Of a DNA stretch of 64,000 nt, positions 2,446 to 37,850 are shown piece after piece. Source of the stretch: Escherichia coli (lineage in GTDB: Bacteria; Pseudomonadota; Gammaproteobacteria; Enterobacterales; Enterobacteriaceae). The DNA is taken from the NCBI RefSeq assembly GCF_013315695.1, contig NZ_CP054353.1; one strand, 5' to 3'. Every line of letters begins with the position of its first letter. Within the stretch, counting starts at the first letter, position 1. The notes beneath the pieces were generated by a model. That model had not been told where the DNA came from and did no database searches. It saw only the letters and a program-made list of their open reading frames with translations. The translations under genes were made by a program, and so were the position numbers.

Positions 2446-3555
<1,110 letters not shown>

Positions 3556-3608
3556 TCAAATCAGCTTGCGCGCTATTTTACGCGCCAACGCGCAAGGAAA
3601 CTTGATTT

Positions 3609-4535
3609 TTAACTGCGTGGGTTGCCGAAAATTTCTAAAAATCCGCTGATTTCCGGCCTGCGTTGGGTAAACAAGGTCACAATATCTTCTACCGCTTTGC
3701 CGCTGCCAAATTTGCGCCATGCCAGACTCAATGGCGAAGGAGGGCGCATCGTTGGGATTACCCGGCTGACCAGTTGTTGATTATCGATCATTGACTGGCA
3801 AAGTGATTTTGGCAAAAAACCAATGCCAACGCCCGCCAGATGGGCGGCGATTTTCGTTTCCATATCAGGAACAATAATCTCTTTTTGCCCTGGCAATCGC
3901 CAGGCGACGCGTTTGGTTAAGGTGCGGGCGCTGTCTTCAATATTGACCGCCGGAAAGCGCCGCAACTGCGCTTCTGTTAGCGGCTCTTCAACGTTCGCCA
4001 GCGGATGATCCGCCGCCATGACAAAGCGCCATTGCACCGATCCTAAGGGATCAAGACTAAAGGTATTTGCCAGCGCCTCGGTTCCCGTGACGCCGATAGC
4101 CAGTGAAAAACCTTCGTATAATAGCGAATCCCAGACGCCCATATAGATTTGTCGGGAGATGTGAAACTGGGTAAAGGGGTAACGTTCATTCAGCCACGCC
4201 AGCAGTTGGGCGACGGCCTGGGGGTTATAGAGCAGGTTGTTGATGACAATATTTACCTGGCGTTCCACGCCATCATTCACCTGTTGCAGCTCGCTGGGCA
4301 TACTTTCCAGCCAGCTCAGCCAGTCTCTGGCCTGGGAAAGTAGATGCTCGCCAGCCGCTGTCAACGTCACGCTGCGAGTCGTGCGGAAAAAGAGCGCTAC
4401 TCCGGTATTCTCTTCCAGAAGTTTAATGCGATAACTGATCGTCGCCGTGGTTTTACATAATCGTTCTGCCGCTTTTGAAAAACTTCCTGTTTCAGCAACC
4501 GCAATGAAAGTCCGCAAGGTTTCTGGATCGAACAT
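3609..4535 (-). CDS. allS: LysR-family transcriptional activator of allantoin genes
   Basis: 308 aa; N-terminal LysR HTH; divergent from allA. Confidence 0.8.
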
Positions 4536-4642
4536 CTTCAGGTATCCCCTTTTAAATCCGCAAGTTGCGTGATTTTCTTATCCTCTGATTTATCAGTATT
4601 TTTACATGATAACCCTGTTCAATTTGTGGACTAAATCTAGTT

Positions 4643-4659
4643 TTGGAAAAATATTCCAA
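4643..4659. promoter_or_regulatory. 17-bp palindrome TTGGAAAAATATTCCAA, candidate AllR operator in the allS-allA intergenic region
   Basis: Perfect inverted repeat TTGGAA..TTCCAA; the same motif recurs upstream of gcl. Confidence 0.5.
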
Positions 4660-4764
4660 CTTTTGTATTGATGTTGTTCTCTTAAGGTTTTAGATTGCCT
4701 GTTATTGAAACCAAGCTGACCGGTCGGCGGTGGTTGAACGGAATTATGTTACAAGGACAAAAAG

Positions 4765-5247
4765 ATGAAACTTCAGGTATTACCGTTAAGTCAGGAAGCC
4801 TTTAGTGCTTATGGCGACGTAATCGAAACGCAGCAACGGGATTTTTTCCATATTAACAATGGCCTGGTGGAGCGTTACCACGATTTGGCGCTGGTTGAGA
4901 TTCTTGAGCAAGACCGTACGCTTATCAGCATTAACCGCGCGCAACCGGCGAATCTGCCGCTGACCATTCACGAACTCGAACGTCATCCGCTGGGCACTCA
5001 GGCCTTTATCCCGATGAAAGGTGAAGTGTTTGTGGTGGTCGTGGCGTTAGGTGACGACAAACCAGACTTGTCAACTCTGCGGGCGTTTATTACCAACGGC
5101 GAACAGGGGGTGAATTACCATCGTAACGTCTGGCATCATCCACTTTTCGCCTGGCAGCGCGTCACCGATTTCTTGACCATCGATCGCGGCGGCAGTGACA
5201 ACTGTGATGTTGAAAGTATTCCTGAACAGGAACTCTGTTTTGCGTGA
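4765..5247 (+). CDS. allA: ureidoglycolate lyase
   Basis: 160 aa ORF; context. Confidence 0.8.
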
Positions 5248-5324
5248 CGCCTGCAACCGACTTGCATAAGATAAACGAATTGTTCATTGTTTATGCTCAT
5301 TTGTAGGTCGGAGTTAACGTAGGT

Positions 5325-6140
5325 ATGACGGAAGTTAGACGGCGCGGCAGGCCAGGACAGGCGGAGCCTGTGGCACAGAAGGGCGCACAGGCGTTAGAGC
5401 GGGGAATTGCGATTCTGCAATATCTGGAAAAAAGTGGGGGAAGTTCGTCGGTTAGCGATATTTCTCTCAATCTGGATTTGCCGCTCTCCACGACCTTTCG
5501 CTTGCTGAAGGTTTTACAGGCAGCGGATTTTGTCTATCAGGACAGTCAGTTAGGCTGGTGGCATATAGGATTAGGTGTCTTTAACGTCGGTGCGGCGTAC
5601 ATCCATAACCGCGATGTCCTCTCCGTCGCCGGGCCGTTTATGCGCCGCCTGATGTTACTTTCCGGCGAAACGGTCAATGTCGCGATCCGTAACGGCAATG
5701 AAGCGGTATTAATTGGTCAGTTAGAGTGTAAATCGATGGTCAGGATGTGTGCGCCGCTGGGCAGTCGTCTGCCGCTGCATGCTTCCGGTGCGGGCAAGGC
5801 GCTGCTTTATCCGCTGGCGGAAGAGGAGTTGATGAGCATCATTCTGCAAACCGGTTTGCAGCAGTTTACGCCAACGACGCTTGTGGATATGCCCACCTTG
5901 CTGAAGGACCTGGAACAAGCGCGTGAACTGGGCTATACCGTAGATAAAGAAGAGCATGTTGTCGGCCTGAATTGCATAGCTTCAGCAATTTACGATGATG
6001 TAGGTAGTGTTGTTGCCGCTATCTCCATCTCCGGGCCTTCATCAAGACTGACAGAAGATCGTTTTGTCAGTCAGGGTGAGCTGGTCAGAGACACCGCCCG
6101 CGATATCAGCACGGCGTTGGGACTGAAAGCACATCCATAG
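5325..6140 (+). CDS. allR: IclR-family repressor of allantoin/glyoxylate genes
   Basis: 271 aa; IclR-type HTH plus effector domain; context. Confidence 0.8.
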
Positions 6141-6192
6141 TGTCTGTCGTATCCCGCTCTGCGGAGCGGGTTTTTTTGACAAAATTTGAAAG

Positions 6193-6209
6193 TTGGAAAA
6201 TTTTTCCAA
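6193..6209. promoter_or_regulatory. 17-bp palindrome TTGGAAAATTTTTCCAA, candidate AllR operator upstream of gcl
   Basis: Inverted repeat about 20 bp upstream of the gcl RBS. Confidence 0.5.
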
Positions 6210-6229
6210 TTAATAGAGGTAGGAATAAA

Positions 6230-8011
6230 ATGGCAAAAATGAGAGCCGTTGACGCGGCAATGTATGTGCTGGAGAAAGAAGGTATCATCACCGCCTTCGG
6301 CGTTCCGGGAGCTGCAATCAATCCGTTCTACTCAGCGATGCGTAAGCACGGCGGTATTCGTCACATTCTGGCGCGTCATGTGGAAGGTGCTTCGCACATG
6401 GCGGAAGGTTATACCCGCGCAACGGCAGGGAATATCGGCGTATGTCTGGGGACTTCCGGTCCTGCGGGCACGGACATGATCACCGCGCTCTATTCTGCTT
6501 CTGCTGATTCCATTCCTATTCTGTGTATTACCGGCCAGGCTCCGCGCGCCCGTCTGCATAAAGAAGATTTCCAGGCCGTTGATATTGAAGCAATTGCTAA
6601 ACCGGTCAGCAAAATGGCGGTTACAGTTCGTGAAGCGGCGCTGGTGCCTCGTGTGCTGCAACAGGCGTTTCACCTGATGCGTTCTGGTCGCCCGGGTCCG
6701 GTACTGGTGGATTTACCGTTCGACGTTCAGGTTGCGGAAATCGAGTTTGATCCTGACATGTACGAACCGCTGCCGGTCTACAAACCTGCTGCCAGCCGTA
6801 TGCAGATCGAAAAAGCTGTAGAAATGTTAATTCAGGCCGAACGTCCGGTGATTGTTGCCGGGGGCGGGGTAATCAATGCTGACGCTGCTGCACTGTTACA
6901 ACAGTTTGCTGAACTGACCAGCGTTCCGGTGATCCCAACGCTGATGGGCTGGGGCTGTATCCCGGACGATCATGAACTGATGGCCGGGATGGTGGGTCTG
7001 CAAACCGCGCATCGTTACGGTAACGCAACGTTGCTGGCGTCCGACATGGTGTTTGGTATCGGTAACCGTTTTGCTAACCGTCATACCGGTTCGGTAGAGA
7101 AATACACCGAAGGGCGCAAAATCGTTCATATCGATATTGAGCCGACGCAAATTGGCCGCGTGCTGTGTCCGGATCTCGGCATTGTCTCTGATGCTAAAGC
7201 GGCGCTGACGCTGCTGGTTGAAGTGGCGCAGGAGATGCAAAAAGCGGGTCGTCTGCCGTGTCGTAAAGAATGGGTCGCCGACTGCCAGCAGCGCAAACGT
7301 ACTTTGCTGCGCAAAACCCACTTCGACAATGTGCCGGTGAAACCGCAGCGCGTGTATGAAGAGATGAACAAAGCCTTTGGTCGCGATGTTTGTTATGTCA
7401 CCACCATTGGCCTGTCACAAATCGCTGCGGCACAAATGCTGCATGTCTTTAAAGACCGCCACTGGATCAACTGTGGGCAGGCAGGCCCGCTGGGCTGGAC
7501 CATTCCGGCGGCGCTGGGGGTTTGTGCCGCTGATCCAGAGCGCAAAGTGGTGGCGATTTCCGGTGACTTCGACTTCCAGTTCCTGATTGAAGAATTGGCC
7601 GTTGGCGCACAGTTCAACATTCCGTACATCCATGTACTGGTCAATAACGCCTATCTGGGGCTGATTCGCCAGTCGCAGCGCGCGTTTGATATGGATTACT
7701 GCGTACAGCTCGCGTTCGAAAATATTAACTCCAGTGAAGTGAACGGTTACGGCGTCGACCACGTAAAAGTAGCGGAAGGTTTAGGTTGTAAAGCAATTCG
7801 CGTTTTCAAACCGGAAGATATTGCACCAGCCTTTGAACAGGCGAAAGTCTTAATGGCGCAATATCGGGTACCGGTAGTCGTGGAAGTTATTCTCGAGCGT
7901 GTGACCAATATTTCGATGGGCAGTGAACTGGATAACGTCATGGAATTTGAAGATATCGCCGATAACGCAGCGGACGCACCGACTGAAACCTGTTTCATGC
8001 ACTATGAATAA
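6230..8011 (+). CDS. gcl: glyoxylate carboligase (ThDP enzyme)
   Basis: 593 aa from [19 protein letters not shown]; ThDP-binding family features; start chosen at internal ATG after RBS AGGAATAAAA. Confidence 0.9.
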
Positions 8012-8023
8012 GGGAGATAAATA

Positions 8024-8800
8024 ATGTTACGTTTCTCTGCTAATTTATCGATGTTATTTGGTGAATATGATTTTCTCGCCCGTTTTGAGAAAGCTGCGCA
8101 GTGTGGTTTTCGCGGCGTTGAATTTATGTTCCCTTATGACTACGACATTGAAGAATTAAAACAGGTGCTGGCGAGTAATAAACTCGAACATACGCTGCAC
8201 AATTTACCGGCAGGTGACTGGGCGGCGGGCGAGCGGGGTATTGCCTGTATTCCTGGCCGTGAAGAAGAGTTTCGGGATGGCGTAGCAGCAGCGATTCGTT
8301 ATGCTCGTGCGCTGGGTAATAAAAAAATTAACTGTCTGGTCGGTAAAATGCCAGCTGGTTTCAGCAGTGAACAGATTCACGCAACGCTTGTAGAAAACCT
8401 GCGTTATGCCGCGAATATGCTGATGAAAGAAGATATTTTATTACTGATTGAACCTATCAACCATTTTGATATTCCTGGTTTCCATCTCACCGGAACCCGG
8501 CAGGCACTGAAACTGATTGACGATGTTGGTTGCTGCAATTTGAAAATTCAGTATGACATTTATCACATGCAGCGGATGGAAGGTGAATTAACTAATACCA
8601 TGACTCAGTGGGCCGATAAAATTGGTCACCTGCAAATCGCTGATAATCCGCATCGCGGCGAACCGGGAACCGGAGAAATTAATTACGAATATCTCTTTAC
8701 GGTAATTGAAAATTCTGACTACAACGGTTGGGTTGGCTGTGAATATAAACCCCAAACCACCACGGAAGCTGGTTTAGGCTGGATGGATCCGTACCGTTAA
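8024..8800 (+). CDS. hyi: hydroxypyruvate isomerase
   Basis: 258 aa; TIM-barrel xylose-isomerase-like; context. Confidence 0.85.
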   Translation: MLRFSANLSMLFGEYDFLARFEKAAQCGFRGVEFMFPYDYDIEELKQVLASNKLEHTLHNLPAGDWAAGERGIACIPGREEEFRDGVAAAIRYARALGNKKINCLVGKMPAGFSSEQIHATLVENLRYAANMLMKEDILLLIEPINHFDIPGFHLTGTRQALKLIDDVGCCNLKIQYDIYHMQRMEGELTNTMTQWADKIGHLQIADNPHRGEPGTGEINYEYLFTVIENSDYNGWVGCEYKPQTTTEAGLGWMDPYR

Positions 8801-8899: not shown

Positions 8900-9778
8900 A
8901 TGAAACTGGGATTTATTGGCTTAGGCATTATGGGTACACCGATGGCCATTAATCTGGCACGTGCTGGTCATCAACTGCATGTCACAACCATTGGTCCGGT
9001 TGCTGATGAATTACTGTCACTGGGTGCCGTCAGTGTTGAAACGGCGCGCCAGGTAACGGAAGCATCGGACATCATTTTTATTATGGTGCCGGATACGCCA
9101 CAGGTTGAAGACGTTCTGTTTGGTGAAAATGGTTGTACCAAAGCCTCGCTGAAGGGCAAAACCATTGTTGATATGAGCTCCATTTCCCCGATCGAAACTA
9201 AACGTTTCGCTCGTCAGGTGAATGAACTGGGCGGCGATTATCTCGATGCGCCCGTCTCCGGCGGTGAAATCGGCGCGCGTGAAGGGACGTTGTCGATTAT
9301 GGTTGGCGGTGACGAAGCGGTATTTGAACGTGTTAAACCGCTGTTTGAACTGCTCGGTAAAAATATCACCCTCGTGGGCGGTAACGGCGACGGTCAAACC
9401 TGCAAAGTGGCAAATCAGATTATCGTGGCGCTCAATATTGAAGCGGTTTCTGAAGCCCTGCTATTTGCTTCAAAAGCCGGAGCGGATCCGGTACGTGTGC
9501 GCCAGGCGCTGATGGGCGGCTTTGCTTCCTCACGTATTCTGGAAGTTCACGGTGAGCGCATGATTAAACGCACCTTTAATCCAGGTTTTAAAATTGCGCT
9601 GCACCAGAAAGATCTCAACCTGGCACTGCAAAGTGCGAAAGCACTGGCGCTGAATCTGCCAAACACCGCGACCTGCCAGGAATTGTTTAATACCTGTGCG
9701 GCAAACGGTGGTAGCCAGTTGGATCACTCTGCGTTAGTGCAGGCGCTGGAATTAATGGCTAACCATAAACTGGCCTGA
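8900..9778 (+). CDS. glxR: tartronate semialdehyde reductase
   Basis: 292 aa; N-terminal GxGxxG Rossmann motif (GFIGLGIMG). Confidence 0.85.
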   Translation: MKLGFIGLGIMGTPMAINLARAGHQLHVTTIGPVADELLSLGAVSVETARQVTEASDIIFIMVPDTPQVEDVLFGENGCTKASLKGKTIVDMSSISPIETKRFARQVNELGGDYLDAPVSGGEIGAREGTLSIMVGGDEAVFERVKPLFELLGKNITLVGGNGDGQTCKVANQIIVALNIEAVSEALLFASKAGADPVRVRQALMGGFASSRILEVHGERMIKRTFNPGFKIALHQKDLNLALQSAKALALNLPNTATCQELFNTCAANGGSQLDHSALVQALELMANHKLA

Positions 9779-9947
9779 TACCCGCAATAAAAATGGCCGA
9801 TATCAGAAAATGAATCGGCCAGCAATATTAAAAAAAGAAAGCAGCCAAAGATGTTGCTTCAGTATTAAAAATAATATTTTTATTTTATTTGTTCCTCATA
9901 GCTAGATTAAAAAGACGTTATTCGATACGTGAAATTAAGAGGGATTT

Positions 9948-14202: not shown

Positions 14203-15345
14203 ATGAAAATTGTCATTGCGCCAGACTCGTTTAAAGAGAGCTTAAGTGCAGAAAAATGTTGTCAGGCAATTAAAGCCGGGTTTTCGACCCTCTTTCCCGA
14301 TGCGCACTATATCTGTTTGCCGATAGCGGATGGCGGCGAAGGAACGGTGGATGCGATGGTCGCCGCGACGGGCGGCAACATCGTGACGCTTGAAGTCTGC
14401 GGGCCGATGGGCGAAACAGTGAATGCTTTTTATGGCCTTACCGGCGACGGGAAAACGGCGGTGATTGAGATGGCTGCGGCAAGCGGCCTGATGCTGGTCG
14501 CGCCTGAAAAGCGTAATCCGTTGCTGGCCTCCAGTTTTGGTACGGGGGAGTTAATTCGCCATGCGCTGGATAACGGCATTCGCCATATTATTCTCGGCAT
14601 TGGCGGCAGTGCGACGGTCGACGGCGGTATGGGCATGGCGCAGGCGCTCGGTGTGCGTTTCCTTGATGCCGACGGTCAGGTGCTGGCGGCTAACGGCGGC
14701 AATTTAGCGCGCGTGGCAAGCATTGAGATGAATGAATGCGATCCGCGTCTGGCGAACTGTCATATTGAAGTCGCATGTGACGTTGATAACCCGCTGGTAG
14801 GGGCACGCGGCGCGGCGGCGGTGTTTGGCCCGCAAAAAGGGGCAACGCCGGAGATGGTCGAAGAACTGGAACAGGGGCTGCAAAATTACGCCCGTGTTTT
14901 ACAACAGCTAACTGAAATCAACGTCTGCCAGATGGCGGGCGGTGGCGCGGCGGGCGGTATGGGCATTGCGGCGGAGGTATTCCTCAATGCGGATATTAAA
15001 CCGGGTATTGAGATTGTGTTGAATGCGGTCAATCTTGCGCAGGCGGTGCAGGGTGCAGCACTGGTGATCACCGGGGAAGGGCGCATCGATTCGCAAACGG
15101 CAGGTGGTAAAGCGCCGCTGGGCGTGGCGTCGGTGGCGAAGCAGTTTAATGTCCCGGTGATTGGGATTGCTGGCGTATTGGGTGATGGCGTGGAAGTGGT
15201 GCACCAGTACGGCATTGACGCGGTGTTCAGCATTTTGCCACGTCTGGCACCTTTAGCCGAAGTGCTCGCCAGCGGTGAAACCAATCTCTTCAACAGCGCA
15301 CGAAATATTGCCTGCGCCGGTGATGCTGCCAACTTACTGATTTAG
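14203..15345 (+). CDS. glxK: glycerate kinase; last codons and stop lie inside the IS1 left inverted repeat
   Basis: About 380 aa; ORF continues across the IS1 boundary at 15319 (…[10 protein letters not shown]). Confidence 0.75.
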
Positions 15346-15373
15346 TGTATGATGGTGTTTTTGAGGTGCTCCA

Positions 15374-15649
15374 GTGGCTTCTGTTTCTATCAGCTGTCCC
15401 TCCTGTTCAGCTACTGACGGGGTGGTGCGTAACGGCAAAAGCACCGCCGGACATCAGCGCTATCTCTGCTCTCACTGCCGTAAAACATGGCAACTGCAGT
15501 TCACTTACACCGCTTCTCAACCCGGTACGCACCAGAAAATCATTGATATGGCCATGAATGGCGTTGGATGCCGGGCAACAGCCCGCATTATGGGCGTTGG
15601 CCTCAACACGATTTTACGTCACTTAAAAAACTCAGGCCGCAGTCGGTAA
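15374..15649 (+). CDS. insA: IS1 InsA
   Basis: 91 aa zinc-finger/HTH protein, identical in both copies. Confidence 0.9.
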
Positions 15650-16071
15650 CCTCGCGCATACAGCCGGGCAGTGACGTCATCGTCTGCGCGGAAATGGACG
15701 AACAGTGGGGCTATGTCGGGGCTAAATCGCGCCAGCGCTGGCTGTTTTACGCGTATGACAGGCTCCGGAAGACGGTTGTTGCGCACGTATTCGGTGAACG
15801 CACTATGGCGACGCTGGGGCGTCTTATGAGCCTGCTGTCACCCTTTGACGTGGTGATATGGATGACGGATGGCTGGCCGCTGTATGAATCCCGCCTGAAG
15901 GGAAAGCTGCACGTAATCAGCAAGCGATATACGCAGCGAATTGAGCGGCATAACCTGAATCTGAGGCAGCACCTGGCACGGCTGGGACGGAAGTCGCTGT
16001 CGTTCTCAAAATCGGTGGAGCTGCATGACAAAGTCATCGGGCATTATCTGAACATAAAACACTATCAATAA
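15568..16071 (+). CDS. insB: IS1 InsB (transposase C-part, made as InsAB' by -1 frameshift)
   Basis: 167 aa ORF overlapping insA in the -1 frame. Confidence 0.85.
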
Positions 16072-16086
16072 GTTGGAGTCATTACC

Positions 16087-37041: not shown

Positions 37042-37096
37042 GGTGATGCTGCCAACTTACTGATTTAGTGTATGATGGTGTTTTTGAGGTGCTCCA

Positions 37097-37372
37097 GTGG
37101 CTTCTGTTTCTATCAGCTGTCCCTCCTGTTCAGCTACTGACGGGGTGGTGCGTAACGGCAAAAGCACCGCCGGACATCAGCGCTATCTCTGCTCTCACTG
37201 CCGTAAAACATGGCAACTGCAGTTCACTTACACCGCTTCTCAACCCGGTACGCACCAGAAAATCATTGATATGGCCATGAATGGCGTTGGATGCCGGGCA
37301 ACAGCCCGCATTATGGGCGTTGGCCTCAACACGATTTTACGTCACTTAAAAAACTCAGGCCGCAGTCGGTAA
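37097..37372 (+). CDS. insA: IS1 InsA
   Basis: Identical to 15374..15649. Confidence 0.9.
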
Positions 37373-37794
37373 CCTCGCGCATACAGCCGGGCAGTGACGT
37401 CATCGTCTGCGCGGAAATGGACGAACAGTGGGGCTATGTCGGGGCTAAATCGCGCCAGCGCTGGCTGTTTTACGCGTATGACAGGCTCCGGAAGACGGTT
37501 GTTGCGCACGTATTCGGTGAACGCACTATGGCGACGCTGGGGCGTCTTATGAGCCTGCTGTCACCCTTTGACGTGGTGATATGGATGACGGATGGCTGGC
37601 CGCTGTATGAATCCCGCCTGAAGGGAAAGCTGCACGTAATCAGCAAGCGATATACGCAGCGAATTGAGCGGCATAACCTGAATCTGAGGCAGCACCTGGC
37701 ACGGCTGGGACGGAAGTCGCTGTCGTTCTCAAAATCGGTGGAGCTGCATGACAAAGTCATCGGGCATTATCTGAACATAAAACACTATCAATAA
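37291..37794 (+). CDS. insB: IS1 InsB
   Basis: Identical to 15568..16071. Confidence 0.85.
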
Positions 37795-37850
37795 GTTGGA
37801 GTCATTACCTTCTAATTGATATGCAATTGTTTACTAAAAGTTATTAAAAA

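Follow-up and report, generated by a model that had tools for sequence, protein, structure and literature searches.

The closest described systems are the AllR operators of Escherichia coli K-12 (Rintoul et al. 2002 J Mol Biol 324:599). There, AllR binds the control regions of the divergent allS-allA pair and of the gcl operon, glyoxylate acts as inducer and allantoin as corepressor of the system, and allS is among the repressed genes (PMC12535856). A second account gives the same two AllR targets and reports that binding is decreased by glyoxylate (PMC11323563), and the gcl promoter is likewise described as repressed by AllR (PMC13300388, PMC11323563). Measurements of AllR binding in vivo and in vitro by ChIP-seq, Library-ChIP and BLI portray a highly specific factor with few strong sites (PMC12059191). 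Two published sequences provide a direct standard for comparison, namely AAATCTAGTTTTGGAAAAATATTCCAACTTTTGTATT, quoted as the AllR recognition site with citation of Rintoul et al. 2002 (PMC13300388), and the AllR motif KTTGGAAWAWTWTTCCAAC (PMC8222616, Table 1).

We analyzed a 64-kb stretch of E. coli DNA (the window, taken at its full length), in which an initial annotation had reported near-identical perfect palindromes in the allS-allA and allR-gcl spacers and proposed them as operators of the AllR repressor encoded between them. The coordinates and sequences of both elements proved right. Site A, the allS-allA operator, occupies positions 4643-4659 (TTGGAAAAATATTCCAA), and site G, the gcl operator, occupies positions 6193-6209 (TTGGAAAATTTTTCCAA). 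With 15 of 17 bases in common the two are indeed near-identical, but the description as perfect palindromes holds for site G and not for site A. Site G is a perfect 8-N-8 palindrome with complementarity at 8/8 arm pairs, whereas site A is complementary at 7/8, with A opposite A two bases either side of the centre. This non-complementary position coincides with the degenerate position (W) of the published consensus.

The surrounding genes were named from protein family models. The LysR-type activator gene allS, the divergent target of operator A, lies on the minus strand at 3609-4535 (NCBIfam NF007501, 644 bits). On the plus strand follow allA, encoding ureidoglycolate lyase and also a target of operator A (4765-5247; NCBIfam NF002948, 365 bits), the IclR-family repressor gene allR (5325-6140; NCBIfam NF007548 AllR equivalog, 619 bits against a cutoff of 406) and the glyoxylate carboligase gene gcl (6230-8011; TIGR01504, 1279 bits, and RefSeq annotation), which is the first gene of the operon served by operator G. 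All four names are also supported by the RefSeq annotation of identical genomes. Further downstream, hyi (8024-8800) and glxR (8900-9778), both on the plus strand, were assigned from open reading frames and NCBIfam equivalog models. The region from 3500 to 8100 is 100% identical to several complete E. coli chromosomes carrying the same annotation, and the stretch was found in 5,399 of 5,426 complete E. coli genomes. Gene models and RefSeq annotation agree on the spacer positions first assigned to the two elements. Site A sits inside the 229-bp allS-allA spacer, where its centre is separated by 116 bp from the ATG of allS and by 114 bp from that of allA, and site G sits inside the 89-bp allR-gcl spacer, ending 20 nt ahead of the gcl ATG.

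Comparison with K-12 revealed the same elements, the same flanking genes and the same AllR protein. The AllR encoded in the window is 100% identical to K-12 AllR, comprises HTH_IclR and IclR_C domains (Pfam) and matches the solved structure PDB 1TF1 over its effector domain (E = 2e-110). The 37-bp stretch at 4634-4670 is identical, letter for letter, to the published recognition site AAATCTAGTTTTGGAAAAATATTCCAACTTTTGTATT. With one flanking base on each side included, site A agrees with the consensus KTTGGAAWAWTWTTCCAAC at 19/19 positions and site G at 18/19. The allS-allA spacer is 100% identical to that of K-12 MG1655 over its whole 229 bp, and the allR-gcl spacer differs from its K-12 counterpart by three substitutions, none of them in the arms; one of the three, at the symmetry-free centre of site G between identical arms, gives T in this strain where K-12 has A. 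In contrast to K-12, this strain lacks allE-allC-allD downstream, owing to an IS1-adjacent deletion described below.

Consensus, location, identity with K-12, a cognate AllR and conservation alongside allR in orthologous loci all mark these sites as AllR operators, and we regard it as almost certain that both inverted repeats are operators of the AllR encoded between them. Indeed, they are the characterized AllR operators and as such established knowledge. The operator interpretation in the initial annotation is thus upheld by the published recognition site and consensus match, the identity of AllR and the cross-species footprint, and binding experiments of the kind it had proposed have, according to secondary citations, already been done in K-12. 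For this strain, our analysis covers the sites, their uniqueness, their identity with K-12, the identity of AllR and selection on the arms, while binding and effector responses are drawn from the K-12 literature. Physical binding of AllR and its weakening by glyoxylate are reported for K-12 (PMC11323563, PMC12535856, PMC12059191).

The distinctiveness of the pair was evaluated by pattern searches, shuffling and a weight matrix. Searching the window for TTGGAAWWNWWTTCCAA with at most one mismatch returned two matches versus 0.02 expected, and at least two matches were obtained in 0 of 100 shuffled windows. The pattern given in the initial annotation, even at up to three mismatches, had sites A and G as its sole matches in the 64 kb. 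Similarly, a weight matrix built solely from 40 foreign (non-Escherichia) sites scored the two sites at 31.9 and 30.4 bits, with 31.9 the possible maximum. The next best position in the 64 kb reached 6.1 bits, and the top score in 30 shuffles was 14.9. Elsewhere in the 64 kb, allD/fdrA and allW included, neither pattern nor matrix scans found further AllR sites, in accord with the report that allF has no AllR site (PMC12535856). Palindromy is another matter. Perfect 8-N-8 palindromes occur 5 times in the window, and allowing one mismatch raises the number to 38, so that symmetry per se is not unusual here; the significance lies in two palindromes with one common sequence flanking allR. One of the other palindromes, the perfect A/T-only 8-N-8 element TAAAAATAATATTTTTA at 9866-9882, is not AllR-like and lies in the glxR-allW intergenic region, beside the allantoin transporter gene.

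The abundance of palindromes in the window is what might suggest that sites A and G are chance A/T-rich palindromes devoid of function. Against this stand the occurrence of two copies of one sequence where 0.02 are expected, the intergenic position of both copies on either side of allR, and arms that are nearly invariant in 20 loci from nine other genera while their flanks diverge. Taken together with the published AllR binding, these observations leave the chance explanation with next to no probability.

These loci were gathered by scanning for AllR proteins in one genome per species, which gave 20 informative non-Escherichia loci in nine other genera (from Klebsiella, Raoultella, Citrobacter, Superficieibacter, Buttiauxella, Izhakiella, Atlantibacter, Providencia and other Enterobacteriaceae) with AllR identities of 66-91%. 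The gene order allS / allA-allR-gcl-hyi is kept in 20/20 loci, and each of the 20 has exactly one site per spacer; extra sites with up to three mismatches were absent from 4 kb on either side. In site-anchored alignments the arms carry 1.91 (site A) and 1.84 (site G) bits per position, compared with 0.76 and 0.82 bits per position for the respective flanks, and the central base is A or T across genera. Relative to the sites in the window, the orthologous Enterobacterales sites show single substitutions 1, 2, 5, 6 or 8 bases from the centre. The distance from the centre of site A to the allA ATG is 110-117 bp in 19/21 loci, whereas that to allS is variable (86 to 215 bp). Site G ends 18-21 nt ahead of the gcl ATG in 16/21 loci, and in Providencia this distance is 12 nt. 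About 40% and 60% of E. coli genomes carry polymorphisms in the 37-bp and 54-bp regions, respectively, that surround the two sites, and among the variants sampled every change in both regions falls outside the 16 arm positions. The operator arms are under strong purifying selection across the nine other genera. One assembly encountered in this survey, L009 (CACSKA010000001.1), is labelled 'Chryseobacterium sp. 18061' but has a typical enterobacterial allS-allA-allR-gcl locus nearly identical to that of L021, 'Citrobacter sp. 18056', from the same project; it is probably mislabelled or contaminated.

Recognition by the paralogue IclR is the only rival with any substance. IclR also senses glyoxylate and is the closest characterized E. 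coli paralogue of AllR (NCBIfam 248 bits; PDB 1TD5), and its box is very similar, so that sites A and G might mainly be IclR operators. Compared with the published IclR box TGGAAATNATTTCCA (PMC8222616), site A agrees at 11/14 positions and site G at 12/14. The IclR boxes of the aceBAK and iclR promoters resemble the present sites in protein family, in the TGGAA...TTCCA core, in the odd-spaced inverted repeat and in the glyoxylate effector (PMC8222616, PMC11323563). They differ in the innermost arm bases and in the regulon, which is the glyoxylate shunt rather than allantoin/glyoxylate assimilation. The innermost positions read AAAA-N-TTTT here versus AAAT-N-ATTT in the IclR box, and neither site A nor site G matches an IclR consensus that includes the innermost T/A. 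Across genera, 74 of 80 half-sites retain this A/T adjacent to the centre, as expected for a specificity determinant. Furthermore, the sites consistently accompany allR, one on each side of the gene, and are ascribed to AllR in the literature, and deletion of allR in K-12 is reported to derepress gcl and allA (PMC12535856). On this evidence, assignment of the sites mainly to IclR is extremely unlikely.

Both sites can also be folded as hairpins, which raised the question of whether they act as nucleic-acid structures (an RNA hairpin, a terminator or attenuator, or a DNA cruciform) rather than as protein sites. Site G gave -7.1 kcal/mol with a z-score of -2.9. A stem of this energy is weak, as is that of site A (-4.4 kcal/mol, z-score -1.5). 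Neither has a G+C-rich stem followed by a T-run, and the terminator scan called neither. Across genera it is the sequence of the arms that is kept, and compensatory changes are absent, which is a signature of protein recognition, and operator A stands between divergent genes and probably upstream of at least the allA promoter. The hairpin/terminator reading was therefore rejected on the basis of weak stems, the missing terminator call and the lack of covariation, and we consider nucleic-acid structure so improbable an explanation as to be negligible.

The real terminator of this region is the intrinsic terminator of allR on the plus strand at 6153-6177, with a stem at 6153-6170 and a T-run, as called by the terminator scan. 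Its fold is stable (-14.8 kcal/mol, z-score -4.1), stem and T-run are kept across genera, and it ends 15 nt before site G. The T-run continues into TTGACA (6153-6181 for the whole stretch), the best candidate for a gcl -35 element, so that terminator, -35, operator and Shine-Dalgarno sequence are all accommodated within 89 bp, in an arrangement kept across genera. The same terminator forms the 3′ end of the K-12-annotated sRNA AllZ (b4831; K-12 533629-533863), which corresponds to 5943-6177 of the window, derives from the 3′ part of allR and thus finishes 15 nt upstream of the gcl operator. AllZ is supported by published RIL-seq and northern data (PMC8175672).

Assignment of AllR to both sites leads to a mechanism that, for this strain, remains a prediction. 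Each helix-turn-helix of an AllR dimer would read one TTGGAA(W)A half-site. Operator G lies between the TTGACA -35-like hexamer (putative -35 on the plus strand at 6176-6181, 11 bp upstream of the operator) and the gcl Shine-Dalgarno sequence GAGG (6216-6219), and would thus cover the core gcl promoter. In the other genera, TTGnnn or TAGACA occupies the equivalent position, 10-11 bp ahead of the gcl palindrome. Given the short distance between operator and ATG and the position of TTGACA, we infer that the operator contains or directly borders the gcl -10 element and transcription start; a 17-bp spacer would place the -10 element inside operator G. AllR bound there would be expected to occlude the core promoter in the classical manner and so block the gcl operon (gcl-hyi-glxR-allW-allB-ybbY-glxK). 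The pathway product glyoxylate would lower the affinity of AllR for DNA and lead to derepression, and allantoin, following literature reports, would strengthen repression.

The arrangement at operator A is predicted to differ. This operator stands midway between the divergent genes allS and allA and would govern both. A candidate allA promoter on the plus strand at 4668-4696 (-35 TTGATG at 4668-4673, 17-bp spacer, -10 TAGATT at 4691-4696) begins 8 bp downstream of the operator, and the blocks TTGAT/TTGC and TAGATT/TAAATT/TGAATT recur in the anchored cross-species alignment. Operator A would then border the allA -35 on its upstream side instead of covering the core promoter, which makes simple steric occlusion less secure at this site; the 37-bp recognition region, extending to 4670, overlaps the candidate -35. 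All hexamers were assigned by hand with conservation as support. The promoter scan made no call in the allS-allA spacer, and its single call, at 6203-6231, is implausible, as it overlaps the gcl ATG. For allS we found no convincing promoter placement, as several -10/-35 combinations were badly spaced. On the allS side of operator A, blocks conserved in nearly all genera (ATTTTTnCAT at 4598-4607, TGTGG at 4625-4629 and AATCT at 4634-4638) may belong to the allS promoter or be bound by another regulator. Expression of allS is also responsive to nitrogen limitation and anaerobiosis (PMC12535856).

The imperfection of site A has a fixed orientation, since the allA-proximal half of the allS-allA operator reads TATTCCAA in 18/21 loci. 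The gcl operators are perfect in 10/21 loci, and the remainder vary at several positions. The fixed imperfection of site A may tune affinity or overlap a promoter element.

Walker and colleagues (Walker et al. 2006) reportedly found AllR to be a tetramer that glyoxylate shifts towards dimers. Besides repressing locally, one AllR tetramer might bridge both operators, whose centres are 1,550 bp apart, looping out allA-allR and coupling repression. IclR-family proteins are known to bind DNA as dimers or tetramers (PMC8222616). With one strong palindrome per spacer and no second scoring site nearby, one dimer of the tetramer could stay free, and the arrangement of two operators around allR is kept in all loci. 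Conservation of the operator spacing is nonetheless uninformative, because that spacing is set by two coding genes, and a second dimer could be taken up locally by a weak A/T-rich pseudo-site (TTTGACAAAATTTGAAA) 17-18 bp upstream of operator G. At gclP, Rintoul et al. (2002) reportedly saw protection of two neighboring sites. In our weight matrix the pseudo-site scored -2.9 bits and its counterparts in other genera -17 to -0.2 bits, which offers no sequence support for a second specific AllR site at gclP. Bridging in addition to local repression is, in our estimation, very unlikely. We also consider unlikely the broader proposal that the operators cooperate via a 1.55-kb tetramer loop and that, separately, the imperfection of site A was selected for a different threshold or directionality at allS/allA versus gcl.

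The regulon of the present strain has been shortened by IS1. Two IS1 copies of 768 bp, identical to each other, are present in the window (15319-16086 and 37042-37809). The first replaces 3,715 bp present in strain CE10 (junctions 15318/15319 and 16086/16087). Relative to CE10, allE, allC and allD are missing entirely, together with the allD-fdrA control region, and the loss extends over ~30 nt at the end of glxK and ~136 nt at the start of fdrA. In strain MSB1_4I the same IS1 occurs with the same left junction and a GCCTGCGCC target duplication, with allE and allC intact, whereas the first IS1 of the window is flanked by no target duplication. From these two observations we infer an IS1-adjacent deletion derived from such an insertion. 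The right junction was not found as one contiguous match among the complete genomes listed. As a consequence of the deletion the enzymes from allantoate to ureidoglycolate are absent, and the strain keeps allS, allR and both AllR operators without the target operon of AllS. The second IS1 has no evident target-site duplication and adjoins a tRNA-Arg gene and an integrase remnant at the edge of a lambdoid (DLP12-like) prophage region; colinearity with CE10 ends beyond about 34.4 kb of the window.

Overall, the two operators are the control points for induction of purine-nitrogen salvage and glyoxylate assimilation by glyoxylate (and allantoin) in E. coli. A biosensor module made of the gcl promoter and its AllR operator is already in use (PMC13300388). 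To this established picture, the present analysis contributes a precise annotation of this strain, a cross-genus map of the constrained operator positions and the description of an IS1-shortened regulon.
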